The translations under genes and the position numbers were made by a program. 64,000 nt of DNA from Planctomycetota bacterium (GTDB lineage Bacteria; Planctomycetota; UBA8108; UBA1146). This document shows positions 1,128-61,385 of this stretch, in pieces (position 1 is the first letter of the stretch; each line of letters begins with the position of its first letter). The notes under the pieces were generated by a model. The model searched no databases. It was not told the DNA's origin and worked only from the letters and a program-made list of their open reading frames with translations. The stretch spans positions 15,829-79,828 of the forward strand of contig JAAZXB010000012.1 in the NCBI GenBank assembly GCA_014240375.1, given 5' to 3'.

Positions 1128-1805
1128 CTAAAATGTGCGAATTGACAGGTTTCTGAATTGCAGGCGGGATCCATGAGACTGCAATTCGATCGCTCCTTTG
1201 TTAATGATCGGCTTTTCTCGGTCCCAGTAGTTCTCCAGCACCACATCATCGACCACTCGTTGGCCGTTGAGATCGACCGTGACCCGCTCTCCCTCCATGC
1301 GGATGCGGAAGTGATTCCACTGCCCGGTGGGAAGGTCGGCGGCGACTTGGGGCCGCGATGCGCCGGACTGGTTGTTGTAGAGACCTCCGGAACCCTCCGG
1401 ATGTTGCGCAATATCCCAGATTTGCACCTGGGGAGAGCCTCTCAGGTAGATGCCGCTATCTCCCCCCGGTTCGATCAGCCACTCCAGCTGCAACTCGAAA
1501 TCGGTGAATTGCTCGATGGTGCACAGGTGCGAGCCGTGGCCATCGAAGATCAGCATCCCCTGATCGACGCTCCAGTGCTCTCTCATCTGCTGGTCTGCCC
1601 GCTGCTGCGCCTCCGCTCGCGCCTCGGGTGCCAGCTGGGCCCGGCTGTAGGGGTTCCCCACCAGCCCCTGCCAGCCGCTCAGCGATTGGCCGTCGAACAG
1701 TGGCTGAAATGGCTCAGAGCGCGGATCGGTGGCGCCGCATCCCACCAGCAGTGAGAGGATCCCGAGCCACAGCAGCGGTGATCGGGCAGCCGTTTTGATC
1801 TTCAT
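1128..1805 (-). CDS. DUF1080 / 3-keto-disaccharide-hydrolase-like family lipoprotein (LamG-like jelly roll)
   Basis: The internal Met start gives MKIKTAARSPLLWLGILSLLVGC, which reads as a lipoprotein signal. The C-terminal KGAIELQSHGSRLQFRNLSIR is the typical end of DUF1080 proteins. The upstream 33 codons of the tracked ORF look non-coding. Confidence 0.7.
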   Translation of the reverse strand: MKIKTAARSPLLWLGILSLLVGCGATDPRSEPFQPLFDGQSLSGWQGLVGNPYSRAQLAPEARAEAQQRADQQMREHWSVDQGMLIFDGHGSHLCTIEQFTDFELQLEWLIEPGGDSGIYLRGSPQVQIWDIAQHPEGSGGLYNNQSGASRPQVAADLPTGQWNHFRIRMEGERVTVDLNGQRVVDDVVLENYWDREKPIINKGAIELQSHGSRLQFRNLSIRTF

Positions 1806-2023
1806 GATGAGTGTCCCCCTGGAGGAATATGGCACGGGAAGCGCCGCGAGACCAGCCCGGTCAGTCGTGGCCCCTCGCGGTCCGATGGCGTACGATCCTT
1901 CCACCGGACTCGAATCCAGTTGCGTTGAACCCCTTCGGGAGGAGTGGTGTATTGTCCGAAAATGGCCATGACGGTGCCGTTCTAGCCCCTCTGGACGGGG
2001 GACTGAAGTTCCGCCTGTCGATC

Positions 2024-3307
2024 ATGATGTTTCTCCAGTACGCCATCTGGGGCGCATGGTTACCGCTGCTGTGGGATCTGTTGATGAACGCCAAGGGCTT
2101 CACCGGTGCCGAGGTGGGGAATATCTTTGCAGTCGGGGCGGTGGGAGCGATCTTCGGCCCCTTCATCGCGGGTCAGGTCGCCGATCGCTGGTTCAGAACC
2201 GAGAGATTTCTGGCCCTCAGCCATCTGATCGGGGGAGGGCTGGCGTGGAAGATGGCCTCGCTCGATGATTACAACACCTTCTTCTGGTACGCCCTGATCT
2301 ATGGCCTGATCTATTCCCCGACACTGGCGCTGACCAACAGCCTCTCCTTCCATCACCTTACCGATCGGGATCGAGATTTCGGCAAGATCCGGTTGTGGGG
2401 TACCGTCGGCTGGATCGTCGCCGGAATCGGCATCGGCCAGTGGCTGTTGCATATGCATGCCGGTGGATCGTCGGATAACGCCAAGGCGCCGGAGGTGTAT
2501 GCGGGCATGGCGGATGCCTTCAGGCTCAGCGGCATCTGCGGCATCACCATGGGTTTCTTCTGTCTGTTCGGATTGCCCAGTACTCCTCCGAGCAAGTCTC
2601 AGGATGGAGACAATGCCACGGTAAAGGCGCTGGGCGAGGTCTCTCGTCAGCCGCTGCTGACGCTGTTTCTCATCGCAGTCCCTGTTTCCTGTATCCACCA
2701 GTTTTACTTCGTTCATACCGCGCCTTTTCTCAACACCATTCAGAGTGAACTGGGTGGCTCCGGGCTGGCCGCGAGCCTCAACTCCATCTTCGGCATTGGC
2801 GGTGGCGGATTGATGACGATCGGCCAGATGTCGGAGATCTTCGTACTGGCGATGATTCCGCTGCTGGCGCTGACGCTGAGTCGCAAGAAGTTACTGATGA
2901 TCGGGTTGCTCGCCTATGCCGCCCGGATGGCGCTCTTCGCCTACGCTCCGATGCTAGGTGGTGTGTACGGCATGTCACTGGTGATCCTCGGGGTGGCGCT
3001 TCATGGATTCTGTTTCGGCTGCTTTATCTTCGTCGCCTTCATGGTGGTCGATGAGGAGTGCTCGACGGATGTTCGGGCCAGCGCCCAGAACCTGTTCAAT
3101 CTGGTGATCATCGGTATCGGCATCATCGTCGGTAGCAAGGTCGCCAGTTCGGTGGCCGAGTGGGCGAGTGCCCGGGTCGCCGATGGAGCCCCTTGGTATG
3201 CAAAGACCACCGAAATGTTCCAGGTACCGATGGCCGCCAGCCTGGTGTGTCTGGTACTGCTGGCTCTGCTGTACCCCTCGACCGGAAAGAAGGAGATGTC
3301 ATCATGA
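2024..3307 (+). CDS. MFS transporter, nucleoside:H+ symporter (NHS, NupG/XapB-like) family
   Basis: [16 protein letters not shown]...[15 protein letters not shown]...[13 protein letters not shown] aligns by eye with the XapB/NupG N-terminal motifs (FLQYxxWGSWL, IVADKW, IRxFGTVGFI). About 12 TM segments. The first 71 codons of tracked ORF 1811-3307 are Arg/Pro-rich and look non-coding, so the start is moved to ATG 2024. The start is uncertain. Confidence 0.7.
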
Positions 3308-4263
3308 GACCAGAAGATCCCAACTGGAATCGCCGAGAGTTTTTCGGATGGAGTGTTGGATCGTTGGCTGTCATGGCGAGCCTGACCGGCTGTGCAGGCG
3401 TCGGTTACGGCGTCGTGAGTTCCCGCTGGGGAGCCGCTCCGAAGCCGAACTTCGATGTTTCACTGGCGCAGTGGTCCCTGCATCGCACCTTGCGAAGTGG
3501 AACGATGACGAATCTCGACTTCCCGCGCGTGACCCGTGAGGTGTACGGACTGGGCGCGGTCGAATACGTCAATTCTTTCTTCAAGGACAAGGCCAACGAC
3601 ACTGCGTACCTGACCGACTTGAAGAAACGTTGCACGGATCATGATATCCAGAGCCTGCTCATCATGTGCGATGGCGAGGGACGACTGGGGGATCCCGATG
3701 CCGGTGCCAGGAATCAGGCGGTGAAGAATCATCACCGCTGGGTCGACGCTGCGAAGTTCCTCGGTTGCCACTCGATACGGGTCAATGCCGCGAGCGCAGG
3801 GAGTTACGACGAACAGATGAAACTGGCAGCGGACGGATTGTCGTCGCTGACCGAATACGGCGCGGCCCAGGGGCTCAACGTGATCGTCGAGAATCACGGA
3901 GGGCTCTCCTCCAATGGTGCATGGTTGGCCGGGGTGATGAAGATGGTCGATCAGCCTCGCTGTGGAACCTTGCCCGACTTCGGAAACTTCAACCTCGGAG
4001 GTGGCAAGAGTTACGACCGCTACCTCGGTGTCGAGGAATTGATGCCGTACGCCAAGGCGGTCAGCGCCAAGAGTCACGCCTTTGATGAGAAGGGCAACGA
4101 GACTGCGACTGATTACAAGAGAATGATGAAGATCGTCATGGATGCGGGATACAGGGGTTTCGTCGGAATCGAGTTCGAGGGGGGCGGGGATGAAAAAACC
4201 GGCATCCTGGCGACCCGGGACCTGCTGTACCGGATCAAGAACGAATACTCGAGCAGTAGTTGA
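3304..4263 (+). CDS. Tat-exported sugar phosphate isomerase/epimerase (xylose-isomerase-like TIM barrel)
   Basis: ATG 3304 overlaps the MFS stop (ATGA), with AAGGAG 10 nt upstream. [24 protein letters not shown] is a twin-arginine signal. VIVENHGG...LPDFGNF is typical of PF01261-type TIM barrels. Confidence 0.75.
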
Positions 4264-4345: not shown

Positions 4346-5686
4346 ATGAACGATGAAGAAACGATGAAGCCGGCAGGGAATGACCGCCGTGACTTCCTCA
4401 AAGGCGCAGCACTGGCAGCCGGTGCCATCGCCATCAGTGGGAACAGTTTGCTCGGCTCGGAGCGGATCGGTGCCAAGACCGGTGTCATCGGTAGAGCCGC
4501 TCGTCGCACCCCCCTGGGCGACGATGGAGTGGTGCGAATGGGAGTCATCGGGACCGGAGGGATGGGCGGTGGCCACATCGATTCCTTCCTCCGCTTTGCC
4601 ACCCGTGGCGAGGACAAGGTCAAGATCGTTGCAGTCTGCGATGTCAACCATAAGCGCCGCGCTGTTGCCGAGAGTAAGATCAACAAGGCGCAAGGGGATG
4701 AGTGCACCGTCTACAACGATTACCTGGAACTGCTCGCTCGCGATGACATTCACGGAGTGCTGATCGCTTCCCCGGAACACTGGCACGCCCAGATGGCTGA
4801 AGATGCGTTGATGGCGGGCAAGGATGTGTACCTCGAGAAGCCGATGACGCTGCGTTTGCCGGAGGCGTTGCGCCTGCGTCAGGTGGTTCTCAATAACCCC
4901 GATGTGCTGCTCCAGGTCGGTACCCAGAAGATCATGCTGCCGAAGTACAAGGCGGCTCAGGCGATGGTTGCAGAGGGCGCGATCGGCAAGCCGACCTTCA
5001 GTCAGACCTCCTACTGTCGCAACTCCAGAGATGGGGAGTGGAAGTACTACGGCATCGATCCCGAGTGGAAGCCGGGGGTCAATGTCGACTGGGATCGCTG
5101 GTGTGGCCCGGCCGGAGTTCGCGACTGGAACCCGGCATTGTGTGCTCGCTGGCGTCGCTACAAGGATTTCTCGACCGGCATCGTCGGTGACCTGCTGGTT
5201 CACGAGATCACTCCGTTGATGATGGCGCTCGATCAGGGCTGGCCCACTCGGGTGGTGGCCACCGGTGGCCATTACATCGACAAGGCGATGGAAAATCACG
5301 ATCAGGTCAACTTGCAGATCCAGTTCGAGAAGGGGCACACCCTCATCGTGGCGGGGTCGACCTGCAACGAGATGGGTCTCGAGACGATGATCCGGGGCCA
5401 TCAGGGCACCATTTACCTCAACGGGGGCAACTGCAAGATGGTCCCTCAGCGCTTGTTCGCCGACGATGTCGAACCGCAAGAGGTGATCTGCGAGAGCATC
5501 GGCAATGATCAGGATGCGCTTCGTCGTAACTGGCTCGATTGCATTCGCACCCGTCGTCAACCCGATTCCAATGTCGATCTGGGGACCAAGGTGATCGTTG
5601 CGGTCGACCTGGCGACCCGTTCGATGTGGGAGGGCAAGGCGTTCGAGTTCGATCCTTCCTCGATGACTGCCACGAGCATCGGCTAG
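4346..5686 (+). CDS. Tat-exported Gfo/Idh/MocA family oxidoreductase
   Basis: GAGGAG precedes the ATG. The RRDFLKGAALAAGAIA Tat motif is followed by a Rossmann fold (MGVIGTGGMGGGH) and the EKP motif (VYLEKPMT). Confidence 0.85.
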   Translation: MNDEETMKPAGNDRRDFLKGAALAAGAIAISGNSLLGSERIGAKTGVIGRAARRTPLGDDGVVRMGVIGTGGMGGGHIDSFLRFATRGEDKVKIVAVCDVNHKRRAVAESKINKAQGDECTVYNDYLELLARDDIHGVLIASPEHWHAQMAEDALMAGKDVYLEKPMTLRLPEALRLRQVVLNNPDVLLQVGTQKIMLPKYKAAQAMVAEGAIGKPTFSQTSYCRNSRDGEWKYYGIDPEWKPGVNVDWDRWCGPAGVRDWNPALCARWRRYKDFSTGIVGDLLVHEITPLMMALDQGWPTRVVATGGHYIDKAMENHDQVNLQIQFEKGHTLIVAGSTCNEMGLETMIRGHQGTIYLNGGNCKMVPQRLFADDVEPQEVICESIGNDQDALRRNWLDCIRTRRQPDSNVDLGTKVIVAVDLATRSMWEGKAFEFDPSSMTATSIG

Positions 5687-5705: not shown

Positions 5706-6608
5706 ATGATGCACAGGGGAGCTCTCCCGGCGATGGGAACTCGATTCGAGATCGTCGCCGGGGGAGCGGATCCCGCTCTTCTACGTGCTGCAGTGGAGGA
5801 AGCCTTCGAGGAGATCTCCACCTGTCATCGGTTGTGGAATGTTTTTTCCAACGACAGCACACTGGCACGAATCGATGCCGAATCTGCCGGTAAACCGGTG
5901 ACCATCGATGGGCTGACACTGGAACTGCTGCAGATCTGTTCCCGACTTCATCAGCAGACTGGCGGTTTCTTTGATCCGGTCATCGGAGCGGACCTGGCGG
6001 CCGGGGATCCGCGTCGCGCTCCGATCTTCGGTGTCGCTCCTCGAGATGGTTTCGGGGGAATCGAACTCGATGCTGCGGCTTCCACTGTACGGCGACACGA
6101 TTCTCGATTGAGGTTCGACCTGGGGGGGATCGCCAAGGGCTTTGCCTGTGATCTGGCCGCCTCGATCCTGCTCGAAGCGGGAGTGGAGTGTGCGTTGATC
6201 CATGGCGGCACCAGTAGCGTGGTGGCGTTGGGAGCGGCTCCGGGAAGGCAGGACTGGTCGATCGAGGTGAAGGGTTACGAGGGGAAGCAGATCGGACTGG
6301 TCGACCGTGCGATGGCGGTCACCTCCGCCGGAGGCGGCGGCGCAGGGGGCCACCTCATCGATCCCTTCAGCGGCGATCGACTCGGGCGTGATCGCGGTGG
6401 AGCGATGGTGGTCGGAGACAGTGCAACCGACTGTGATGGCTGGGCCACCGCACTGACTGTGGCTGGCTTTGAAGGAGATGTGGCCCGACAGATTCCTGCA
6501 ACGATGCAGGGCTATCGGCTCAACAATGAAGAATCGACTCACATGAAACCGGAAGCTGAGGCATCCGTGGAAGAGGAACGATGGAAACGGACCGTAGAGA
6601 TTTCTTGA
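5706..6608 (+). CDS. apbE: FAD:protein FMN transferase ApbE (no signal peptide)
   Basis: The AMGTRFEI (MGT motif), DLGGIAKGFA and AVTSAGGG motifs are characteristic of ApbE. The N-terminus starts directly at the catalytic core with no signal peptide or lipobox. It overlaps the next gene by 28 nt. Confidence 0.75.
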   Translation: MMHRGALPAMGTRFEIVAGGADPALLRAAVEEAFEEISTCHRLWNVFSNDSTLARIDAESAGKPVTIDGLTLELLQICSRLHQQTGGFFDPVIGADLAAGDPRRAPIFGVAPRDGFGGIELDAAASTVRRHDSRLRFDLGGIAKGFACDLAASILLEAGVECALIHGGTSSVVALGAAPGRQDWSIEVKGYEGKQIGLVDRAMAVTSAGGGGAGGHLIDPFSGDRLGRDRGGAMVVGDSATDCDGWATALTVAGFEGDVARQIPATMQGYRLNNEESTHMKPEAEASVEEERWKRTVEIS

Positions 6609-7810
6609 TCCAGAGCGCAGGTGCACTGGCCGGGATGGCACTTCTTCCAGGACTGGAAGCGATGGCGACGAATGTCCCGAAAGGCTATCCGGTTGCCATC
6701 ATCGGCATGGGCCGACAGGGTCGAGCGATTGCCGCAGAGTTGCAGAAACTGGGAGCGGCCATCGTGGCGATCTGTGACCTCGATGAGCCGCGATTGAGAA
6801 GTGCCAGGAGGCGCGTCTCGGATGCCACTCCCTATGCCGATTCGGATTCGTTGCTGACGACCGAGAAGGGAGTGGAGGCGGTCTTCATCGCCACCCCGAC
6901 CCACCAGCATCGGGCGATTGCCGAGGCGGCAGTGGCGGCGGGCAAGCATGTCTACTGCGAGGCGCCGCTGGCACATACCCTCGAGGATGCTCGGGCCATC
7001 GCCTTGGCCGCCCGTTCCAATCCGCGAGTTTTCCAGGTCGGGTTGTTGGCGCGATCCAATCCGGTCTACTCGCTGGCTCGCTCCTTCTTCCGCACCGAGG
7101 CGTTCCTCAAGTTGGTCTCGATGCGCGCCCAGAACTCACGGAAAACCTCCTGGCGTCAAGCGGCCTCGACTGCCGAGCGGCAAGCTCGTCTCGACTGGCG
7201 TCTCGACCCCACCGTGTCGCTCGGATTGCCGGGAGAATGGGGCACCCATCAGTTTGATGTCATTCATTGGTTCACCGGGCAGTATCCCCATCGTGTGTCG
7301 GGAAATGGCGGAGTGTTCGTGTGGGAAGATGGGCGCAAGGTCGCCGATACCGTCAACTTGACCCTCGAGTTTCCCAAGGGCCAGAGTCTCCAGTACCAGG
7401 CGACGCTGGGCAATTCATATGGTGGCCGCTACGAGGTGCTCCATGGCGTCAACTCCGCATTCAAACTGGCCTGGAGTCATGGCTGGATGTTCAAGGAAGC
7501 GGATGCGGCGACGCAGGGCTGGGAAGTCTACGCCAACCGTCAGCGCTTCTTCAATGACGAGGGGATCACCCTCATCGCTGATGCGACCAAACTCGCCAGT
7601 CAGAACAAGTTGAAGGATGGGGTTGGACTCCCCAATGATTCTCTCCATTACGGTGTGGCAGATTTCCTGCTGAGTTGTGCAGAGCAGATGAAGGTCAAGA
7701 CGGGGGTCAGTGAAGGACTGCGAGCGACTGCCGTGGGGATCGCTGCACAGCGTGCGGTGGTCGAGGGTGGCGTGATCGAGATCTCACAGGACGATCTGAA
7801 GGAGGCCTAG
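6581..7810 (+). CDS. Tat-exported Gfo/Idh/MocA family oxidoreductase
   Basis: The RRDFLIQSAGALAGMAL Tat signal is followed by a VAIIGMGRQGRA Rossmann fold and a CEAPLA (EKP-variant) motif. Confidence 0.8.
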   Translation: METDRRDFLIQSAGALAGMALLPGLEAMATNVPKGYPVAIIGMGRQGRAIAAELQKLGAAIVAICDLDEPRLRSARRRVSDATPYADSDSLLTTEKGVEAVFIATPTHQHRAIAEAAVAAGKHVYCEAPLAHTLEDARAIALAARSNPRVFQVGLLARSNPVYSLARSFFRTEAFLKLVSMRAQNSRKTSWRQAASTAERQARLDWRLDPTVSLGLPGEWGTHQFDVIHWFTGQYPHRVSGNGGVFVWEDGRKVADTVNLTLEFPKGQSLQYQATLGNSYGGRYEVLHGVNSAFKLAWSHGWMFKEADAATQGWEVYANRQRFFNDEGITLIADATKLASQNKLKDGVGLPNDSLHYGVADFLLSCAEQMKVKTGVSEGLRATAVGIAAQRAVVEGGVIEISQDDLKEA

Positions 7811-7813
7811 TCG

Positions 7814-8611
7814 ATGGGATCAATGCCAATCGCTGGAGAGGGGCTCAGTTCTCAACCGATGGGCATCCGGACCGGGATCAGCGCCCTGATCGTGGTGCTC
7901 TATATCGGACTCCTCGCCAGTGCGACGCACATGGTGAGTCACTTCGAGAATCGTGATGAACGACCCGGTTTCACCCTGGATGATGTGACCGGCGCGTACC
8001 ACGGTATCGACAGCCCTGGATTGCTCGGTACAGCCCTCGAAAGGGGACATCCGGAGACGCTGCCTGCGGCGCAGAGGGAGTTGCTACTGAGCTGGCTCAC
8101 GGGTGGGCGTATCGTCGAGGATTACGACAGCCTCGACCTGGAAATCCCACCCGCCGAGATCATCGATCTGAGTTGCATCGAATGTCACACCAGGGCCGCC
8201 GGTGCCGCGACCGGCTCGGTGATCCCACCGCTGGAGTACTTCGACGATATCAAGGAGATCGCCTTCTCCCGCAAGGTGCTGCCCACGCCGGTCGAGGTGC
8301 TGGCCGCCTCGACCCATGCCCATGCCCTGGCGCTGTCGATCCAGGGATTGGTGGTGATCGCACTGGCGTGCATGACACGCTGGCGGCGCCGCTGGATCTC
8401 CTTATTGATCGCCATCATGGGGCTGGGACTGGTCGGCGATGTAGGGGGTTGGTGGTTGGCCCGTTTCAGTCCATCCTGGACGCTGTGCATCATCGTCTCG
8501 GGGACGGCATACAGCGTTTCTCAGGGGATCTTGCTCGCCTCGGTGCTGGCGGATCTCTGGTGGCCCGGGGCCAGTACGAGCGGAACAAAACAGCAAACGG
8601 ACACGGAATAG
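7814..8611 (+). CDS. Small polytopic membrane protein with one CXXCH (c-type heme) motif
   Basis: AGGAGG lies 9 nt upstream. I count four hydrophobic helices (ISALIVVLYIGLLASA, LALSIQGLVVIALAC, ISLLIAIMGLGLVG, TLCIIVSGTAYSVSQGILLASVL). SCIECH sits in the loop between TM1 and TM2. No family recognised. Confidence 0.6.
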   Translation: MGSMPIAGEGLSSQPMGIRTGISALIVVLYIGLLASATHMVSHFENRDERPGFTLDDVTGAYHGIDSPGLLGTALERGHPETLPAAQRELLLSWLTGGRIVEDYDSLDLEIPPAEIIDLSCIECHTRAAGAATGSVIPPLEYFDDIKEIAFSRKVLPTPVEVLAASTHAHALALSIQGLVVIALACMTRWRRRWISLLIAIMGLGLVGDVGGWWLARFSPSWTLCIIVSGTAYSVSQGILLASVLADLWWPGASTSGTKQQTDTE

Positions 8612-8616
8612 GAGTC

Positions 8617-9891
8617 ATGATGAGCCAGCAGAAGCCAGGTGCGAGCCGTCGAGAGTTTTTGAAGGGTGCTGCGGTCGCTTCAGCGGCGACCTTGTTGACC
8701 CCCTCACTGTTGCAGGGCAAGGCGCATGCCGATGGCTCGGATGTGATCCGGGTTGGATTGATCGGCTGTGGAGGCCGAGGATCCGGTGCCGCCAACAACT
8801 GCGTGAACTCCTCCGAAGGAGTCAAGATCACCGCGATGGCGGATCTGTTCCGCGACCGTCTCGACTCGAGTCGAAACAACCTCAAGGGGCTGGGGGATCG
8901 CTTCGATGTTCCCGAGGAGCGCTGCTTCGTCGGCTTTGATGCCTACCAGCAACTGCTCGACTCCGGTGTCGACATGGTGATCCTGGCGACGCCTCCCGGA
9001 TTCAGACCGATCCACTTCGAGGCGGCTGTGGCTGCGGGTAAGCATGTCTTCATGGAGAAGCCGGTCGCCACCGATGGGCCGGGAATCCGCAAGGTACTGG
9101 CTGCCGCCAAGGTCGCCAAGCGCAAGGGGCTGGCGGTGGTCGCCGGAACCCAGCGTCGTCATCAGAAGAGCTATATCGAAACGATGCAGCAGATCCACGA
9201 CGGTGCCATCGGAGAACTGGTCGGCGCTCAGGTCTACTGGAATCAGGGGGGACTGTGGGTGACGCGTCAAACCCCGCAGATGTCCGACATGGAGTGGCAG
9301 GTGAGAAACTGGCTCTACTTTGCCTGGGCCAGCGGCGATCACATCGTCGAGCAGCACATCCACAACATCGATGTGATGAACTGGGCCTTCGGTGGACCTC
9401 CCGAGAAGGCCAACGCCATGGGTGGCCGCCAGGTGCGTACCGGTCCGGAGTACGGCCATATCTTCGACCACTTCGCAGTCGAGTACGTCTACCCGGGTGG
9501 AGTGAGAACCCTCAGTGAATGCCGTCAGATCGACGGCTGCTGGAACCGGGTTTCGGAGAAGATCATCGGCACCAAAGGGGTCGCCAATCCCTCCGGACGC
9601 ATCACCGGCGAAAAGAACTGGAGCGCCCCTGGCGGTGGAAGAAACGCCTATGTTCAGGAACATGCCGATCTGATCGCCAGTATCCGCGCCAATGAACCGC
9701 TGAATGAGGCGGAGCGGGTCGCGATGAGTACCCTGACCGCCATCATGGGTCGGATGAGTGCTTACACCGGCAAGGAAGTCACCCTCGAGTTCGCACTCAA
9801 CTCGCAGAACAGCCTGCACCCCGAGAAGTGGCAGTTTGGTGATCTGGCGCTGCCTGCAGTTGCGATCCCCGGACGCACGGCTCTGGTCTAG
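8617..9891 (+). CDS. Tat-exported Gfo/Idh/MocA family oxidoreductase
   Basis: AGGAG is 4 nt upstream of the ATG. The SRREFLKGAAVASAATLL Tat signal is followed by a VGLIGCGGRGSGAA Rossmann fold and the FMEKPVA (EKP) motif. The tracked ORF 8173-9891 extends upstream as an in-frame read-through of gene 7814-8611 and was trimmed. Confidence 0.85.
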   Translation: MMSQQKPGASRREFLKGAAVASAATLLTPSLLQGKAHADGSDVIRVGLIGCGGRGSGAANNCVNSSEGVKITAMADLFRDRLDSSRNNLKGLGDRFDVPEERCFVGFDAYQQLLDSGVDMVILATPPGFRPIHFEAAVAAGKHVFMEKPVATDGPGIRKVLAAAKVAKRKGLAVVAGTQRRHQKSYIETMQQIHDGAIGELVGAQVYWNQGGLWVTRQTPQMSDMEWQVRNWLYFAWASGDHIVEQHIHNIDVMNWAFGGPPEKANAMGGRQVRTGPEYGHIFDHFAVEYVYPGGVRTLSECRQIDGCWNRVSEKIIGTKGVANPSGRITGEKNWSAPGGGRNAYVQEHADLIASIRANEPLNEAERVAMSTLTAIMGRMSAYTGKEVTLEFALNSQNSLHPEKWQFGDLALPAVAIPGRTALV

Positions 9892-9900
9892 GGGGCAGCG

Positions 9901-10821
9901 TTGGATCGCAGAAATTTTATCTCCGCGGCAGCTCTGGGAGTGGTCGGCAGTAGCTGGGTGGGTGCCATGAAACCGGGGGCAGAAATGTCGACCCCAGCGG
10001 ACTCTTCGCTTCAGCCTCGCCTCAAGAAGTCTCTCAAGATCGGCATGGCGAATGTCGGAAAGACACTGGAGGAGAAGTTCGAAATTCTCAAGGAAGTCGG
10101 ATTTGACGGAGTCGAACTCGATTCGCCTTCCGCTCTCGACTGGCGAGAAGTGTTGCGCGCGAAGGCGGCGACCGGTCTCGAGATTCCCGGAGTGGTGTGC
10201 TCCTCACACTGGGGAAAGCCACTTTCTGCGACGGACGAAAAGGTCCGTCAGCAGGGGATCGAGGGAGTCGAAACCGCGCTGAGAGATTGCCGCCTCTTCG
10301 GTGGCACCACGGTGCTGGTGGTGCCGGGAGTTTGCCGAGATGGAGTCACCTACGAGCAGGCGTGGAAACGATCGACCGAGGCGATTCATCAGTTGATTCC
10401 TCTGGCGGCAGAATTGCGCGTTCGAATCGCCTTCGAGAATGTCTGGAATGATTTCATCACCGATGCCGATGAAGCGGTGAAGTATGTCGATCAGTTCAAC
10501 AGTCCATGGGTCGGCTGGTACTTTGATACCGGTAACATCGTTCGTTATGGCAGTCCCCCCGAGTGGGTGAGAAAACTGGGCGCACGAACCATCAAGGTCG
10601 ACATCAAGGATTATTCCCTCTCCCGCAAGGAGAAGGATGGAGTGTGGGCCGGATTCGCCTGCAAGATCGGAGATCCGGACTCATCGGTTCAGTGGTCTGA
10701 AACGATGAAGGCGCTCGTGGAGATAGGCTACCGTGGTTGGGGGTCTGCCGAGGTGAGCGGCGGAGATCAAGAGCGCCTGGCCGATATTTCCCGTCGTATG
10801 GATGACGTGTATTCCAGGTAG
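9901..10821 (+). CDS. Tat-signal sugar phosphate isomerase/epimerase (xylose-isomerase-like TIM barrel)
   Basis: A TTG start sits 7 nt after a GGGGG run. RRNFISAAALGVVGS is a Tat motif. IAFENVW...WYFDTGNIVRYG...IKVDIKD is typical of the family. Confidence 0.7.
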   Translation: MDRRNFISAAALGVVGSSWVGAMKPGAEMSTPADSSLQPRLKKSLKIGMANVGKTLEEKFEILKEVGFDGVELDSPSALDWREVLRAKAATGLEIPGVVCSSHWGKPLSATDEKVRQQGIEGVETALRDCRLFGGTTVLVVPGVCRDGVTYEQAWKRSTEAIHQLIPLAAELRVRIAFENVWNDFITDADEAVKYVDQFNSPWVGWYFDTGNIVRYGSPPEWVRKLGARTIKVDIKDYSLSRKEKDGVWAGFACKIGDPDSSVQWSETMKALVEIGYRGWGSAEVSGGDQERLADISRRMDDVYSR

Positions 10822-10921: not shown

Positions 10922-13900
10922 ATGTCTCTGACGACTAAAAGCGTGTTCCTGTTGCTTGCACTGTCCCTCTGCTCTGGCCTATCGGGACAGGTTAGCGCGG
11001 ATTCCTGGGTCAACTGGGAAAGCCCTCCTGTTCATCCACTGGAACTGGTTTCGGGCAGTGACCTGCTGCTGGCAACCAACACGGCAGATTCCCATCTGGA
11101 GATCTACAACATCAGTTCCGGTGTCCCGGTGCCGCTCATGTCGGTGCCGGTAGGACTCGATCCGGTATCGGTGCGAGCTCGCAATGCCACCGAGGCGTGG
11201 GTGGTGAATCGAATTTCAGACACCATCAGTATCGTCGACCTTCAAAATGGCTATGTCCGATGGACATTGATGACAGCGGATGAACCTGCGGATGTGATCT
11301 TTGCTGGCACGCCGGAACGCGCTTATGTTTCCTGCTCGGGAACCGATGAGATCATGGTGTTCGATCCATCCGATGTGACGGCCTCCCCCGAGATCATTTC
11401 CTTGGTGGGTGAGGAGCCTCGGGCACTTGCCAAGAGCCCCGACGGATCGATCGTCTACTGCGCCATCTTTGAATCGGGCAATGGCACCACCGTGCTCGGC
11501 GGTGGTTTCGATATCGGGGCCAATGTCATCGCTTTTCCGCCCAATGTCGTCAATGATCCAGCAGGGCCTTATGGTGGCGTCAATCCTCCGCCCAATTCCA
11601 ATGGCGAGTTTGAGCCACCAATTAACCCCAGCATCGGTACACCTCCACCCGTGGCACTGATCGTCAAGAAGATCGACCAGGATGTGTGGGTCGATGATAA
11701 CGGAAGTGACTGGGGAGATCTGGTCAGCGGGCCACAGGCAGGCCTCTCGGGTCGCCAGGTCGGCTGGGATCTGGCAGATCATGATGTCGCGGTCATCGAT
11801 ACCACCGACAACTCGGTCACATACATCCAGTCGCTGATGAACATCTGCATGGCGATCGGTGTTCGTCCGACCGATGGAGCCATCTCGGTGGTCGGAACAG
11901 AGGCATTCAATCACATCCGCTACGAACACAATCTCAACGGGAACTTCATCGATGTGCTGCATGCGATGATCGCCCCGGGAGGTGCGGCCATTGCGCAGAT
12001 TGATGATCTCAATCCGCATCTACCCGCCAGTGGTGTCAGTGTTCCCCTCGATCAGCAGTTGCTGAGCATAGGAGATCCGCGTGCCATCGTCTGGAATGCC
12101 GCAGGTACCGAGGCTTTTGTCGCAGGCAAGGGATCCGGGAATGTGGTCCGGCTCCAGGCGGACGGAACCCGGGATCTTGTGGCGGATCCCATCGACGTGG
12201 GTGCCGGTGCGACCGGTCTCGCCCTCGATGAATCGAGGGGAAAGCTCTACGTGCTGGAGCACTTCGATGCCTCGGTCGCTTCCATCGATATTCAGACCGG
12301 CACCGTCAGTGGTCGAGAGACCTATCACGATCCCACCGGAGCAGTGGTGCGCTCGGGTCGAAAGTTCCTCTACGACACACACCTCACCTCCGGAATGGGC
12401 CAGGTCTCCTGTGCTTCTTGCCATGTCGATGCGCGGACCGATCGCCTGGCGTGGGATCTGGGAGATCCGGCGGGAGAGGAGGCTCCATTCGTCGATGTCT
12501 GCAACATGGGTCTGCCGCTTCCGGGTGTTCCTCCGTGTGATGATTTCCATCCGATGAAGGGGCCGATGTTGACCCAGACATTGCAGGACATCATCGGGAA
12601 GGAACCTCATCACTGGCGTGGAGACAAATTTGGTATCGAGGCCTTTGGTGGCGCATTCATGTCGATCAATGGGGATGATCTCCCGGTCGGAGGGGTAGCG
12701 ATGCAGGAGTTCGAGGCATACCTCGCCAGCATCTATTTTCCGCCCAATCCGTTTCGCGGCATGAGAAATGAGTTGCCCACCGCATTGCCACTCGACGGCC
12801 ATTTCACGACCGGTCGCTTCGGTTCTGAAGGTGAAATACTGGGCAGTGGAAATGCAGAGACAGGGCTGGATCTTTATCGCAATGCTGGCCTCGATGGAGG
12901 TTTGCAGTGTGTGACCTGCCACGCGCTTCCCATCGGAATCGGACCCAACTCTGAATTCAGTTCTGGTTTTGTCATGGCAACGATTCCCGACGGTCCGATG
13001 GGGGAAAAGCACCATGGTATGGTCAGTGTCGACGGTTCCGTTCAGCGGAACATCAAAATCCCTCAGTTGCGAAACGTCTACAAGCGCACCGGTTTCAACA
13101 CCACCCAACTGCTCAATACAACCGGATTTGGATACCTGCACGACGGGTCGGTGGATTCTGTTGAACGCTTCATCAGTGAGCCGGCCTTCTCGGTGACCAA
13201 TGATCAACAGATTGCAGATCTGACCGCCTTCATGCTGGCATTCTCTGGATCCGACCTACCAGAGGGAAGTAACCAGACTCCCTTCGAACCACTCGGGTCG
13301 CCGAGCCAGGATTCGCACGCTGCAGTGGGGATGCAGATCACCCTGGACGAGACCAATAGAGATGACGCTGAAGTGCTCGCAGATGCGCAGATCATCCTCG
13401 ATGAGGCGAGTCTGGGCAGGGTCGGTGTGATCGCCAAGGCGTGGCAAGGCGGATTCCTTCGTGGATGGGTAATGGTGGGCGCCGGCACCGGTGTGTTCCA
13501 GTCCGACATCCTCGCAGAAGCCACCACCTTCACCGACCTTCGCAACTCGGCGGTAGCCGGTGCGGAAGTGACCTTCACCGTGGTTCCGACCGGTTCGGCG
13601 CTGAGGATGGGGATCGATCGCGATCTCGATGGTCATTTTGATGGGGACGAACGCCTTGCCTGTTCCGATCCTGCCGATGCACTGTCTCAACCTGGATCCT
13701 GCTCTGGCGTGTTCTTTGTCCGTGGCGACGGAAATGGCGACGGCGCACTTGATATCTCCGACGCTATTTCAACGCTAACGCTCCTGTTCAGCGGTGGCAG
13801 TTCCAGCACCACCTGTGAGGATGGTCACGACAGTAATGATGATGGGGCCATCGATATCGGAGACCCGATCGCTCTGCTCTCGTACCTCTTTGCTGGAGCC

Positions 13901-13984
13901 GCAGAGTTGCCGGCCCCGGGGGCCAACTGCGGTGAGGATCAGACGGGCGACACCTTGCAGTGTAGCGAGACCGTCTGTCCCTGA
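10922..13984 (+). CDS. Secreted fusion protein: N-terminal beta-propeller-like region, di-heme cytochrome c peroxidase (CCP/MauG)-like domain, C-terminal dockerin-like module
   Basis: The signal peptide is MSLTTKSVFLLLALSLCSGLSGQVSA. FLYDTHLTSGMGQVSCASCH matches the CCP-family first-heme signature, and a second CXXCH is present (CVTCH). The C-terminus carries two Ca-binding dockerin-type repeats (GDGNGDGALDISDAISTLTLLF, DSNDDGAIDIGDPIALLSYLF) and then a CGEDQTGDTLQCSETVCP tail. Confidence 0.8.
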   Translation: MSLTTKSVFLLLALSLCSGLSGQVSADSWVNWESPPVHPLELVSGSDLLLATNTADSHLEIYNISSGVPVPLMSVPVGLDPVSVRARNATEAWVVNRISDTISIVDLQNGYVRWTLMTADEPADVIFAGTPERAYVSCSGTDEIMVFDPSDVTASPEIISLVGEEPRALAKSPDGSIVYCAIFESGNGTTVLGGGFDIGANVIAFPPNVVNDPAGPYGGVNPPPNSNGEFEPPINPSIGTPPPVALIVKKIDQDVWVDDNGSDWGDLVSGPQAGLSGRQVGWDLADHDVAVIDTTDNSVTYIQSLMNICMAIGVRPTDGAISVVGTEAFNHIRYEHNLNGNFIDVLHAMIAPGGAAIAQIDDLNPHLPASGVSVPLDQQLLSIGDPRAIVWNAAGTEAFVAGKGSGNVVRLQADGTRDLVADPIDVGAGATGLALDESRGKLYVLEHFDASVASIDIQTGTVSGRETYHDPTGAVVRSGRKFLYDTHLTSGMGQVSCASCHVDARTDRLAWDLGDPAGEEAPFVDVCNMGLPLPGVPPCDDFHPMKGPMLTQTLQDIIGKEPHHWRGDKFGIEAFGGAFMSINGDDLPVGGVAMQEFEAYLASIYFPPNPFRGMRNELPTALPLDGHFTTGRFGSEGEILGSGNAETGLDLYRNAGLDGGLQCVTCHALPIGIGPNSEFSSGFVMATIPDGPMGEKHHGMVSVDGSVQRNIKIPQLRNVYKRTGFNTTQLLNTTGFGYLHDGSVDSVERFISEPAFSVTNDQQIADLTAFMLAFSGSDLPEGSNQTPFEPLGSPSQDSHAAVGMQITLDETNRDDAEVLADAQIILDEASLGRVGVIAKAWQGGFLRGWVMVGAGTGVFQSDILAEATTFTDLRNSAVAGAEVTFTVVPTGSALRMGIDRDLDGHFDGDERLACSDPADALSQPGSCSGVFFVRGDGNGDGALDISDAISTLTLLFSGGSSSTTCEDGHDSNDDGAIDIGDPIALLSYLFAGAAELPAPGANCGEDQTGDTLQCSETVCP

Positions 13985-29666: not shown

Positions 29667-31784
29667 ATGGATTCGTGGGTGGACTACCTGACCAGCGATA
29701 AGGGTGCGATGCTCGGCATCGGCATCTCCGTGATTTCCCTGATCTATGCATTTTACCTCAACAGCTGGATCAAGAAGCAATCTGCCGGCACCGAGCGAAT
29801 GCAAGAGCTGGCTGGATTCGTCCAGCAGGGTGCGATGGCATTTCTCAAGACCGAATACAAGATGCTGGGAGTGTTCGCCGTTTGCGTGGCGATTGCCCTC
29901 AACTTCGGGGTCAACTCTCAAACCGCCATCTCTTACGTGGTGGGGGCTCTCGCCAGTGGCGTCGCCGGCTGGATCGGCATGAAGACTGCCACGGTCAGTG
30001 CAGTGCGTACTACCGAAGCGGCGAAGACCGGACTCACCGGAGCCTTGACCGTGGCGTTTCGCTCGGGAGCGGTGATGGGATTGACCGTGGTCGGCCTCGG
30101 CTTGCTCGGCGTCTCGACCCTGTTCATCTACTGGCACGGCAACACAGCCCCTGGAGGGAACTTCGTCCAGCCACTCTTTGGCTTCTCCTTCGGTGCCTCC
30201 AGCATCGCGCTCTTTGCCCGGGTGGGCGGAGGCATCTTCACCAAGGCTGCCGATGTGGGCGCCGACCTGGTCGGCAAGGTGGAGGCGGGAATCCCCGAGG
30301 ATGACCCGCGCAACCCGGCCACCATCGCGGATAACGTGGGTGATAACGTTGGCGACGTTGCTGGCATGGGTGCGGACCTGTTCGAATCCTATGTCGGTTC
30401 GATCATCGCATGCATGGCTCTCGGGATCGCGGCTTTTGCGACGGTCGAGGGTGCAGACATGGACGTGGATATCATGCCGTGGGTGGCACTACCACTGGTC
30501 CTCTGTGCTCTGGGAACCCTTTCCTCCATCATCGGCACCGCAGTGGTCAAGACCAAGGACGAGAACAAGGTTCACTCGGCGCTGTTCAATGGCCTGTTGA
30601 CCGCAAGCGTCATCTTCGCCGGATTGGCCGCCTTCGTCTTCAGCAAGATGCCAGGGGATAACCTGCCGTTTGCCGATGGCGCCACCAAGTGGGGTATCTA
30701 CGGAACGCTGGTCGGGGGCCTGCTGCTCGGGATCATCATCGGAAAGATCACCGAACATTACACCTCCGAGCAGGCGCCTCATGCGCGGAAGATCGCCGCC
30801 GATTCGGAACAGGGAACCGCCACCAACATCATCAGTGGACTGGCCATCGGAATGCAATCGACGGTGTGGCCGGTGATCTGGATCTGTGTCGCGATCTACT
30901 CCGCACATCACTTCGGAGGCCTCTACGGAATCGCTCTCAGTGCCGTCGGCATGCTCTCGACGCTGGGCATCTCGCTTGGCATCGACGCCTACGGACCGGT
31001 CGCTGACAATGCCGGCGGCATCGCCGAGATGGCGGGTTGCGATCCGGAAGTGCGTCAGCGCACCGATGCTCTCGATGCGGTAGGAAACACCACCGCCGCC
31101 ATCGGTAAGGGATTCGCCATCGGTTCGGCCGCCCTCACCGCTCTGGCCCTGTTCAACACCTACTCCAACGAGGTGAAGGCAGGACTCGATCGACTTGGTC
31201 TCGATCCTGCGATCTTCGAGAATCTCGACATCCTCAATGTCAACGTGACCATCGGACTGTTCCTCGGAGCGGCGATGACCTTCCTCTTCTCCGCCCTGAC
31301 GATGAAGGCGGTGGGCAAGGCAGCGGGCTCGATGATCGAAGAGGTGCGGCGTCAGTTCCGCGAGATTCCTGGAATCCTCGAAGGAACCGGAAAGCCTGAC
31401 TATGCCGCCTGCGTGGAGATCTCGACCAAGGGATCGCTGCGCGAGATGGTGTTACCCGGATTCCTCGCCATCGTGGTGCCGGTCGCGGTCGGCTGCTGGT
31501 CGATGCAGGTGCTCGGCGGACTGTTGGCGGGATCGCTGGCTACCGGGGTGCTGTTTGCCATCTTCATGTCGAATGCCGGTGGCGCCTGGGACAATGCCAA
31601 GAAGTACATCGAAACGGGACAGCATGGCGGCAAGGGCTCCGAGGCTCACAAGGCTTCGGTGGTCGGCGACACCGTGGGCGATCCGTTCAAGGATACCAGC
31701 GGGCCTTCACTGAACATCCTGATCAAGTTGATGACGATTGTCAGTCTGGTGTTCGTGCCGCTGTTCCTGAAGATGGCCGGGTAG
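29667..31784 (+). CDS. hppA: Membrane-bound H+-translocating pyrophosphatase (K+-stimulated type)
   Basis: [22 protein letters not shown] and the other PPase motifs are present, with 15-16 TM segments. [10 protein letters not shown] has Ala at the K+-dependence position. AAGGAGA precedes the start. Confidence 0.9.
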
Positions 31785-59801: not shown

Positions 59802-61385
59802 TCACTCCAACGACTTGTCGAGAAGCCGTTGATAAGCCTTTGTTCCCACCAGCATCTTGTTTTTCTTGGCGTAGTCGATCGCCATCTTGCCGTCGTTGTT
59901 GCGGGCGAGGGGATCGGCGCCCTTGTCGAGGAGTGCCTGAACGATCTCGGGGCTGGAGGAGAACTGAGCGGTGTACATCAGCGGGGTCATGCCGAGTGGA
60001 TCGGCGACATCCAGCCCAGCGCCGCTGTCGATGAGCAGCTTCACGATCTCGGGGGGCGAGGAGTTGCCGGTGGCGAAAAGCAGCGGCGTCATGCCGAGCG
60101 GATCACTGGCATCCAGTTCAGCGCCGCTGTCGATGAGTAACTTCACGATCTCGGCGCTGGTGGAGTGCGCTGCGGCGACGATCAGCGGGGTCATGTCGAA
60201 CTTGTTTCTGGCTTCCAGTTCAGCGCCGTTGTCGATGAGCAACTTGACGATCTCGGGGGTCGAGGAGTAGGCTGCGGCTTGCATCAGCGGGGTCGAGTCG
60301 GCACTGGAGGATGGGTCTCTGGCGAGCATCTGCGGGATCTTGTCGTCGTTGTTGTTGGCGTTGTTGCCCCTGGCTTCCAGTTCAGCGCCCTCATCCAGGA
60401 GAACTTTTACGATCTCGGGGCTGGTGGAGTGACGGGCGGCGATCATCAACGGGGTCGCGCCGGCGTTGCTCCTGGCTTCCAGTTCAGCGCCGCCGTCGAT
60501 GAACCGCTTCACGATCTCGGCGCTGGAGGAGTGTGCTGCGGCCAACATCAGCGGTGTCCTGCCCGAGCCGTCGTCAATCCTGGCTTCCAGATCAGCGCCC
60601 TTGTCGATGAGCAGCGTTGCGATCTCGGCGCTGGAGGAGTAACGAGCGGTGTACATCAGCGGAGTCATCCCCTTGTTGTTCTTGACCTCGACCCGGGCAC
60701 CCCTGTCGAGGAGCATCTGAACGATCTCGGGTTCTGAGGATCGCGCCGAGGCGAAATGGAGCGGCGTCATATCAATATTACTGCTGGTCTGGACATCGGC
60801 GCCCTTGTCGAGAAGCAGCTGAACGATTTCTGGCATGTAGGAATGCTGTACAGCGAACATCAACGGCGTCATGCCGCCCTTGTTTCGGTCGACGATCTGG
60901 GCACCGTGATCGAGCAGCATCTGAACGATCTCGATGGTCCTGGAATGTGCGACGGAGTACATCAATGCGGTCCCGCCCCCGTCGCTTCTGTTGTCGATCC
61001 TGGCGCCCCTGTCGAGCAGTAATTGAACCATCTCTGGAATATGGGATCGTGCTGCGGCAGCCATCAGCGGGGTCCCACCATCCGGGCCTCTGGCATCGAT
61101 CTGGGCACCCCTGTCGAGCAGGTACTCTGCGATCTTCGGGTTTGAAGAGCGTTGAGCGGCAAACCACAGCGGCGTCAAACTGTTCTTGTTCCTCGCATCG
61201 ATCACCGCACCCTCATCGACCAGCTGCTGGACCAGGGCTAAATTGTGAGTGCTGGCGGCGATGTGCAGTGGAGTGTCGTTGAAGCGGTTGGGTTCCTGAG
61301 CTTCAGTGGTGGCGACGAGGAATAGCATTGCCAGTAAGCAGGTCTGGGCTCGATCGAAAATTCGACTCTCGCTCTCTGGTTTCAT
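59802..61385 (-). CDS. Secreted ankyrin-repeat protein (~14 ANK repeats)
   Basis: Signal-like N-terminus (CLLAMLFLVATTEAQ), then reiterated 33-aa units of the form G(M/A)TPL(M/H).AA....S.EIV(K/Q)LL(I/L)D.GA.(L/I)(D/E)A(R/S). The strongly periodic DNA gives many overlapping spurious ORFs on both strands. Confidence 0.85.
   Translation of the reverse strand: MKPESESRIFDRAQTCLLAMLFLVATTEAQEPNRFNDTPLHIAASTHNLALVQQLVDEGAVIDARNKNSLTPLWFAAQRSSNPKIAEYLLDRGAQIDARGPDGGTPLMAAAARSHIPEMVQLLLDRGARIDNRSDGGGTALMYSVAHSRTIEIVQMLLDHGAQIVDRNKGGMTPLMFAVQHSYMPEIVQLLLDKGADVQTSSNIDMTPLHFASARSSEPEIVQMLLDRGARVEVKNNKGMTPLMYTARYSSSAEIATLLIDKGADLEARIDDGSGRTPLMLAAAHSSSAEIVKRFIDGGAELEARSNAGATPLMIAARHSTSPEIVKVLLDEGAELEARGNNANNNDDKIPQMLARDPSSSADSTPLMQAAAYSSTPEIVKLLIDNGAELEARNKFDMTPLIVAAAHSTSAEIVKLLIDSGAELDASDPLGMTPLLFATGNSSPPEIVKLLIDSGAGLDVADPLGMTPLMYTAQFSSSPEIVQALLDKGADPLARNNDGKMAIDYAKKNKMLVGTKAYQRLLDKSLE

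Follow-up and report, generated by a model that had tools for sequence, protein, structure and literature searches.

Periplasmic redox enzymes and Mtr/Mto conduits are linked to the quinone pool by cytochromes of the NapC/NirT/NrfH/CymA type (PF03264), which are inner-membrane c-type cytochromes with a periplasmic haem domain, encoded in the same operon as their partners. A second arrangement is represented by the LacABC-type dehydrogenases. These are flavin adenine dinucleotide (FAD)/GMC enzymes that work with class I multihaem proteins as cytochrome subunits. In the LacABC or glucoside 3-dehydrogenase type (cited in PMC8121099), the c-type cytochrome is encoded with a sugar dehydrogenase exported by the twin-arginine (Tat) route and takes the dehydrogenase electrons to the respiratory chain, with a flavin between substrate and haem. 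Here, we analyzed a gene in a 64,000-nucleotide (nt) stretch of Planctomycetota bacterium contig JAAZXB010000012.1 (15,829–79,828). This whole stretch is called the window, and all positions below follow its numbering. The gene encodes a membrane protein of four predicted helices with a single CxxCH motif, and it is the last member of a conserved module of four genes, gfoA, apbE, gfoB and the gene itself. The closest systems in function, which the product most resembles, are the quinol dehydrogenases of the NapC/NirT/CymA type and the cytochrome c subunits of periplasmic sugar dehydrogenases. We read it as a monohaem cytochrome c membrane subunit that would take electrons from a periplasmic dehydrogenase complex, probably to menaquinone, and we put the probability of this reading at roughly 0.6.

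The locus differs from both groups. The proposed job is the same as that of the NapC/NirT/NrfH/CymA proteins; these have one N-terminal helix and four haems, whereas the protein described here has four helices, one CxxCH and a conserved HxH/D set. A flavin between substrate and haem is proposed here as in the LacABC type. In contrast to that type, the dehydrogenases of the module are NAD(P)-type members of the Gfo/Idh/MocA family, any flavin would be flavin mononucleotide (FMN) attached by ApbE, and the cytochrome gives no Cytochrom_C match.

It is now recognised that periplasmic Gfo/Idh/MocA glycoside 3-dehydrogenases open an alternative route of glycan breakdown, and that this route is widespread. 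The clusters BT2156-2160 and AL1-AL5 and the Zymomonas GFOR share with the present locus Tat-exported Gfo proteins presumed to hold tightly bound NAD(P), a DUF1080 hydrolase and TIM barrels. The BT2156-2160/AL1-AL5-type clusters, unlike this locus, have neither a membrane cytochrome nor ApbE, and their NAD(H) is thought to be recycled on a second sugar (PMC8121099; 10.1101/2024.03.25.586180). The reoxidation of periplasmic Gfo-type glycoside dehydrogenases is treated as open, with cytochromes as one possibility (10.1101/2024.03.25.586180; PMC8121099). To the Gfo glycoside 3-dehydrogenase gene set, the module adds GfoB, in which the EKP motif is lost, ApbE and the cytochrome. It is a concrete candidate for NAD(P)H reoxidation, with a dedicated membrane cytochrome c and a flavin-attachment enzyme.

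CxxCH motif and predicted topology

Four hydrophobic segments (residues ~20–42, 163–186, 195–215 and 223–248) were detected by Kyte–Doolittle hydropathy. In the AlphaFold2 model, built from 26 homologues, helices span residues 16–44, 160–186, 192–215 and 222–249, and a small helical domain spans residues 55–155 (mean predicted local distance difference test score, pLDDT, 90.1; predicted template modelling score 0.77). The four helices of the initial annotation, made from the sequence of the window, are thus seen by both methods. The motif S-C-I-E-C-H (residues 120–125) is located within the loop of about 120 residues between the first and second transmembrane helices (TM1 and TM2). This loop is acidic, with 22 D/E against 9 K/R. 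Averaged over 204 relatives, the N-terminus carries a net charge of +1.7, loop 1 of −8.3, loop 2 of +1.5 and the C-terminus of +1.4. According to the positive-inside rule, this charge pattern, in the protein itself and family-wide, places the CxxCH loop in the periplasm, and both termini are predicted to be cytoplasmic. The prediction agrees with the earlier placement of SCIECH in the first extracytoplasmic loop.

The initial annotation had allowed that CxxCH might have arisen by chance. The motif arises in 216 of 200,000 shuffles of the protein (~0.1%), and it is kept in 208 of the 210 full-length relatives, down to ~26% identity. Of the two relatives without it, one appears frameshifted and the other chimeric at its N-terminus. 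Because the motif is so rare in shuffles and so constant among relatives, chance is disfavoured and, on these sequence statistics, CxxCH is not accidental. In the alignment of 204 sequences, C121, C124 and H125 are 100% conserved, so the homologues form a family that carries the motif. In the same alignment, H168, H170, W94 and G230 are 99% conserved, G32, D48, D57, G64 and D209 are 96–97% conserved (D209, 97%), and W213, W214 and R217 are 81–89% conserved (W213 and W214, 86–89%).

These results suggest that the protein very probably binds haem c covalently. Without haem, the protein would be no more than another conserved hypothetical membrane protein. In such a case, the CxxC could serve thiol-disulfide exchange or metal binding in a membrane protein that supports the structure or assembly of the Tat-exported enzymes, and the uncharacterised state of the PF27139 family leaves room for this. 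The His after CxxC is, however, as invariant as the cysteines, which is the haem c signature and not that of CxxC redox proteins. Moreover, relatives with duplicated modules match Cytochrom_C, Cytochrome_CBB3 and Haem_bd at their CxxCH motifs, weakly and locally, with scores from sub-threshold to marginal. We regard a function other than that of a cytochrome as extremely improbable.

The conserved residues H168, H170, D209, W213, W214 and R217 are found close to the ends of TM2 and TM3 predicted to face the periplasm. As judged from their positions along the helices, they would provide conserved polar chemistry at the membrane interface beside the haem domain. H79 was considered as the distal (sixth) haem ligand and dropped; it is invariant in close relatives but is not conserved family-wide. 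The HxH and Asp triad at the membrane interface also resembles a metal site. H168, H170 and D209 might then bind Fe, Cu or Zn, and the protein would be a haem-plus-metal oxidase, reductase or metal-handling enzyme, a function with which the very different partners of the family would be compatible. The protein shows no sequence or fold likeness to haem-copper, NOR, NnrS or PuuD-type proteins, and the tight operon coupling to dehydrogenases is more simply read as electron transfer. Such a catalytic function seems to us quite improbable.

Family assignment

The initial annotation left the protein unassigned to any family. This is corrected by a precomputed Pfam match (PF27139.1), which is present on the identical protein and on nearly all of the 96 listed homologues. 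PF27139 is entitled 'Aq_1264_TM', presumably after the Aquifex aeolicus ORF aq_1264, judging by the name. Our own scans of the protein against Pfam-A and NCBIfam gave no family match; the local Pfam copy was older than the PF27139 model. An aminotransferase match of 11.9 bits was discarded as meaningless. The 96 homologues come from 5.8 billion proteins searched with a word index. Among 1.84 billion cluster representatives, a profile search detected 907 matches at E ≤ 1e-3, 459 at E ≤ 1e-10 and 111 at E ≤ 1e-30. The source names of PF27139 members are all "hypothetical protein", and a literature search on PF27139 or aq_1264, or on ApbE with Gfo/MocA, found nothing relevant.

Three known families were compared. 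With four helices and one CxxCH, the protein gave no hidden Markov model (HMM) or structural match to NapC/NirT/NrfH (PF03264). The protein does not show the combination that marks CybB/cytochrome b561 (PF01292), a four-helix bundle with conserved His on separate helices for two b haems together with an HMM match, and no HMM match to class I cytochrome c (PF00034/PF13442) was obtained. PF27139 is a catalogued but functionally blank family, distinct from NapC/NirT/NrfH, CybB and class I cytochrome c. Longer relatives of 461–598 residues (P0218, P0243 and P0237) have two or three periplasmic CxxCH modules and extra C-terminal hydrophobic and low-complexity regions; the family has multihaem forms too.

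Conserved four-gene module

The order of the module is gfoA (product with Tat signal and C2 domain, ~446 residues), apbE, gfoB (product with Tat signal, ~410 residues) and the PF27139 gene. The same order was found in the five contigs that were looked up, which carry the exact protein and four homologues as distant as 38% identity. One genome per GTDB species was scanned, which gave 73 PF27139 loci. The locus scans used the narrower alignments A2 and A4, as A1 and A3 were too diverse. The 73 loci are nearly all labelled Planctomycetota, mostly Phycisphaerae and UBA1146-type; the exceptions are two contigs from a metagenome-assembled genome labelled Bacillota and a few labelled just bacteria. 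Among the 71 loci with at least 2.5 kb of upstream DNA, apbE and gfoB are immediately upstream in 65 (tblastn), and gfoA is present as well in 64 of these. The cytochromes of the module loci are as low as 38% identical to the present protein. The module is found again on a 5.5-Mb contig, where genes for an MFS transporter and a 3-keto-disaccharide hydrolase come before it.

Co-occurrence with Tat-signal Gfo/Idh/MocA genes is therefore very strong in Planctomycetota, and the cytochrome is probably a functional partner of the Gfo module, though we hold this less firmly than haem binding. We found no earlier description of the fixed link that joins PF27139 to an ApbE lacking a signal peptide and to a degenerate, Tat-exported Gfo paralogue. 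In two of the loci, a second, longer ApbE gene is present a few kb from the module (L006, 10119–11126; L165, 15032–16069). It adjoins FGE-sulfatase/YceI-type genes and further Gfo/TIM-barrel pairs.

In the window, the PF27139 gene is tightly placed. The TAG of gfoB ends at 7810, leaving a gap of 3 nt before the ATG, and the ATG of the downstream gene, gfoC, follows at 8617 after a gap of 5 nt. The strong Shine-Dalgarno sequence falls within the end of gfoB. According to the Pfam/NCBIfam scans, both neighbours belong to the Gfo/Idh/MocA family and have twin-arginine leaders (DRRDFL upstream and SRREFL downstream, the latter leader matching TIGR01409 with E 4.8e-5). The gene arrangement of the initial annotation thus stands. 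Its description of the two neighbours as Tat-exported dehydrogenases holds for the family and the leaders, but the upstream protein, GfoB, lacks the catalytic EKP lysine. This loss had been overlooked, as had the signal-less ApbE as part of the conserved module.

GfoA, ApbE and GfoB

GfoA partially matches BT_2158_fam (glycoside 3-dehydrogenase, E 1.4e-29), and its best PDB matches are 8tdf and 8tdh. The EKP motif is kept in all 62 alignable orthologues. According to these matches, GfoA is likely the catalytic subunit of glycoside 3-dehydrogenase type.

The N-terminus of ApbE starts directly at the MGTRFE core with neither signal peptide nor lipobox in 5 of 5 loci, and the protein is predicted to be cytoplasmic. 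The motif GHxxDPxxG is kept in four of the five loci and a DAxxTA-type motif in three. The known ApbE systems (NQR, RNF, NosR, PplA, NapH-like and MsrQ-like; PMC8238504) resemble the module in that ApbE stands beside a membrane electron-transfer protein and periplasmic redox enzymes. Unlike in those systems, ApbE has no signal peptide here, and no substrate of the FMN_bind, DUF2271 or DUF3570 kind accompanies it.

The genes apbE and gfoB overlap by 28 nt. In GfoB, the EKP lysine is lost in 68 of 68 orthologues, being replaced by Ala (60), Thr (5), Gly (2) or Met (1). The most conserved stretch of GfoB is at about residues 291–350 and includes GITLIA[D/G/E]AT[K/Q]L, in which T330 and T336 are invariant. 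AlphaFold2 gives this stretch a pLDDT of 29–46, while the Rossmann domain is confident. High conservation together with a failure of AlphaFold2 to place the stretch is a pattern commonly seen in segments whose folding depends on contact with a partner or cofactor.

Known ApbE targets carry an [S/T]GA[S/T]-like motif, and the survey that describes it used ApbE, FMN-binding, DUF3570 and DUF2271 genes as targets, left out clusters whose target genes all lacked a signal peptide or lipidation site, and states that unidentified substrates remain (PMC8238504). Two flavinylation surveys, of which this is one, make no mention of Gfo/MocA or Planctomycetes. The module points to an unrecognised substrate: GfoB may be a new ApbE substrate that is flavinylated in the cytoplasm before Tat export, and we offer this as a lead and not as a finding. 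The PF27139 protein was also considered as the ApbE substrate and rejected. It has no conserved [S/T]GA[S/T]-like motif, the sole motif-like string (A35-S-A-T38) sits in TM1 with T38 not conserved, and only the clade that has the Gfo module shows the link with ApbE.

Distant members of the family

In distant members (26–40% identical), CxxCH is retained throughout, with HxH and D-x-x-x-W-W also present in nearly all. Four of them were looked up. In a Ca. Manganitrophaceae contig (L084), the member (7001–7714) is directly downstream of an MtrB/PioB porin gene, which is preceded by genes for a monohaem and a multihaem cytochrome c. In the Manganitrophaceae paper, the gene that follows the porin is left undescribed. 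In L083, the member (6515–7219) is also directly downstream of an MtrB/PioB porin gene, with a small cytochrome c nearby. The member in L081 is flanked on one side by a protein with a faint cytochrome c' match and on the other by one with faint matches to Haem_bd and Cytochrome_CBB3. The fourth member has an uninformative context, and HxH and D are lost in the member itself.

The metagenome scan of the distant clade gave more than 570 relatives. In the 43 metagenome loci with flanks, the neighbours are heterogeneous, with cytochrome c families the commonest, and ApbE is not among the commonest neighbour families. A CxxCH protein is encoded within two genes in 10 of the 43 loci, four of these proteins being multihaem; the enrichment of cytochrome c is merely moderate (10 of 115 neighbouring ORFs). 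The idea of one fixed partner for the whole family was dropped on account of this heterogeneity. Two of the six Planctomycetota loci that have the cytochrome gene but not the module were read by eye from translated N-termini. In L076, the adjacent ORFs resemble the flavoprotein and cytochrome b of a succinate dehydrogenase/fumarate reductase; in L073, long hydrophobic ORFs next to the member resemble Nuo antiporter-type subunits. PF27139 looks like a general component of membrane electron transfer that, in a Planctomycetota clade, became part of a fixed dehydrogenase module.

The position of the gene in L083 and L084 recalls CbcL/MtoC/MtrH, whose genes adjoin mtrAB-like porin-cytochrome genes. 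Characterised Mtr/Mto clusters encode a quinone-linked inner-membrane cytochrome, such as CymA or MtoC, alongside the porin genes, and no mtrAB/mtoAB was found next to imcH (PMC6295460). CbcL/MtoC/MtrH and ImcH have transmembrane helices and periplasmic haem c, as predicted for PF27139. In contrast to PF27139, they are multihaem proteins with 3–23 haems, CbcL has a b-type dihaem membrane domain, and there is no sequence or fold relation. If confirmed, the monohaem four-helix protein of L083 and L084, whose gene directly follows that of the porin, would add another cytochrome class. The present analysis provides the first functional hypothesis for PF27139, an abundant family with some members beside MtrB/PioB-type conduits in Mn- and Fe-cycling lineages.

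Proposed electron transfer and its alternatives

The initial annotation read the protein as a membrane-bound monohaem cytochrome that could couple periplasmic dehydrogenases to the membrane. The predicted topology, the conservation of the motif and the co-occurrence support this reading. We propose the following mechanism. In the periplasm, C121 and C124 would receive one haem from the cytochrome c maturation machinery, with H125 as the proximal ligand and H168 or H170 as the distal ligand. The remaining polar residues at the interface would form the contact site for a lipid-soluble acceptor. GfoA, with tightly bound NAD(P), would oxidise a glycoside or sugar in the periplasm by chemistry of the 3-keto-glycoside type. 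The reducing equivalents would pass via its degenerate paralogue GfoB, possibly with an FMN that ApbE has installed in the cytoplasm before Tat export. GfoB would split the hydride into single electrons and deliver them to haem c one at a time. From haem c, the electrons would enter the respiratory chain, most likely by reduction of menaquinone; this is the least certain step. If this mechanism is true, periplasmic sugar oxidation would be directly respiratory in marine and freshwater Planctomycetota.

We give quinone as the acceptor about an even chance. The protein might instead be a membrane-tethered shuttle that, like cytochrome c_y and CycM, passes electrons directly from haem c to another cytochrome or a terminal oxidase, with the helices serving only for anchoring and docking. 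Its single haem, its periplasmic haem domain and the c-type cytochromes as the commonest neighbours in distant clades are consistent with such a role, and none of our computed results points to a quinone site. One helix suffices as an anchor, however, whereas the four helices here carry the near-invariant H168, H170, D209, W213 and G230 at the membrane interface, which speaks for chemistry within the membrane. In L083 and L084, moreover, the gene occupies the position after the porin gene at which Mtr/Mto clusters encode the quinone-linked inner-membrane cytochrome (PMC6295460). We consider the shuttle unlikely.

Electrons might also flow in reverse, with the cytochrome oxidising menaquinol and feeding the Gfo proteins as reductases of 3-keto-sugars or other carbonyls. 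Menaquinol has a potential of about −75 mV (textbook value) and bound NAD(P)+ of about −320 mV. The transfer from menaquinol through haem and flavin to bound NAD(P)+ would be uphill and thermodynamically awkward, and the transporter, hydrolase and lyase-type genes fit substrate oxidation for energy. On the other side, Gfo/Idh/MocA enzymes are reversible, the reduction of 3-keto-sugars is part of a published pathway (10.1101/2024.03.25.586180), and CymA-type proteins operate both ways (PMC6295460). Taken together, reverse flow appears improbable.

Several observations weigh against a respiratory dehydrogenase with the PF27139 protein as its quinone-reducing subunit. The PDB sequence search (E ≤ 10) gave no match to the protein, so that no solved relative is at hand, and Foldseek against the PDB gave nothing below E = 1 for its model. 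Ligation by His168 or His170 is conjectured from position in the sequence, as is the quinone site. For the flavinylation step, the A-x-A-T of GfoB is merely a partial match to [S/T]GA[S/T], and none of the FMN_bind, DUF2271 and DUF3570 domains is present in the module. The published 3-keto-glycoside pathway can be redox-neutral, with no external acceptor needed (10.1101/2024.03.25.586180). The cytochrome gene stands without the module in 6 of the 71 loci. These six loci, together with the heterogeneous neighbours of the distant clade, indicate that the function of the family cannot be specific to sugar dehydrogenases. Finally, no Ccm/Ccs maturation genes were found in the 64-kb window (CcsA WWD motif, 37 larger ORFs scanned). 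The organism probably makes c-type cytochromes, because an adjacent ORF of 1020 residues has two CxxCH motifs.

In its fullest form, our reading would make GfoA-ApbE-GfoB-PF27139 an undescribed respiratory glycoside dehydrogenase, with covalent FMN at or near T336 of GfoB and a quinone-reducing cytochrome. PF27139 would also be a fourth class of quinone-linked inner-membrane cytochrome serving porin-cytochrome conduits, for example in Ca. Manganitrophaceae. We regard this combined proposal as tentative and rather doubtful.

Other genes in the window

The features of the gene and its surroundings are listed in Table 1.

Table 1. Positions of the PF27139 gene, its predicted elements and the surrounding genes in the window (residue numbers refer to the gene product).
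Feature	Position	Strand	Basis
PF27139 (Aq_1264_TM) gene, predicted monohaem cytochrome c with four transmembrane helices	7814..8611	+	ORF, ATG start, 265 residues
Shine-Dalgarno sequence AGGAGG	7800..7805	+	8 nt 5' of the ATG, read from sequence
TM1, residues ~20-42, predicted in to out	7871..7939	+	hydropathy, AlphaFold2 helix 16-44, charge bias
Predicted acidic periplasmic helical domain, residues 43-162; conserved D48, D57, Y62, G64, W94	7940..8299	+	
CIECH, predicted haem-c attachment motif (C121, C124, H125)	8174..8188	+	conservation, shuffles
TM2, residues 163-186; S-T-H168-A-H170 (nt 8315-8323) at predicted periplasmic end	8300..8371	+	AlphaFold2 helix 160-186
Predicted cytoplasmic TM2-TM3 loop MTRWRRRW (4 Arg)	8372..8395	+	family mean net charge +1.5
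TM3, residues 195-215; D209 (nt 8438-8440) and W213-W214 (nt 8450-8455) near predicted periplasmic face	8396..8458	+	
TM4, residues 223-248; G230 99% conserved	8480..8557	+	hydropathy, AlphaFold2, alignment
GfoA, Tat-signal Gfo/Idh/MocA with C2 domain, intact EKP; first module gene	4346..5686	+	Pfam, NCBIfam, synteny
ApbE-family flavin transferase without signal peptide; second module gene	5706..6608	+	PF02424, E 5e-34
GfoB, Tat-signal Gfo/Idh/MocA, EKP replaced by EAP; third module gene	6581..7810	+	scans, alignment, AlphaFold2
GfoC, third Tat-signal Gfo/Idh/MocA dehydrogenase, EKP intact	8617..9891	+	downstream in closer relatives only
Xylose-isomerase-like TIM barrel (AP_endonuc_2), signal-like N-terminus	9901..10821	+	Pfam, synteny
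Second xylose-isomerase-like TIM barrel	3304..4263	+	family match
3-keto-disaccharide hydrolase (PF06439)	1128..1805	-	family match
MFS/nucleoside-H+ symporter-type transporter	1829..3307	+	family match

The 3-keto-glycoside route of glycan breakdown is an oxidative pathway (PMC8121099; 10.1101/2024.03.25.586180). As judged from the family matches, the genes around the module are the gene set of this route.

The protein of 1020 residues mentioned above (10922–13984, + strand) looks secreted and contains CASCH (nt 12410) and CVTCH (nt 12908). It matches CCP_MauG only weakly, and D-x-D-x-D-G repeats resembling those of dockerins or EF-hands occur at its C-terminus. The closest relatives (L001-L003) also have the gene downstream of the module. 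A membrane H+-translocating pyrophosphatase, a feature of the bioenergetics of the organism, is encoded at 29667–31784 on the + strand (H_PPase, E 1.6e-271). On the − strand, at 59802–61385, a gene unrelated to the PF27139 gene encodes a 527-residue protein that consists nearly entirely of ankyrin repeats (Ank_2, E 6.5e-95); such proteins are uncommon in bacteria.

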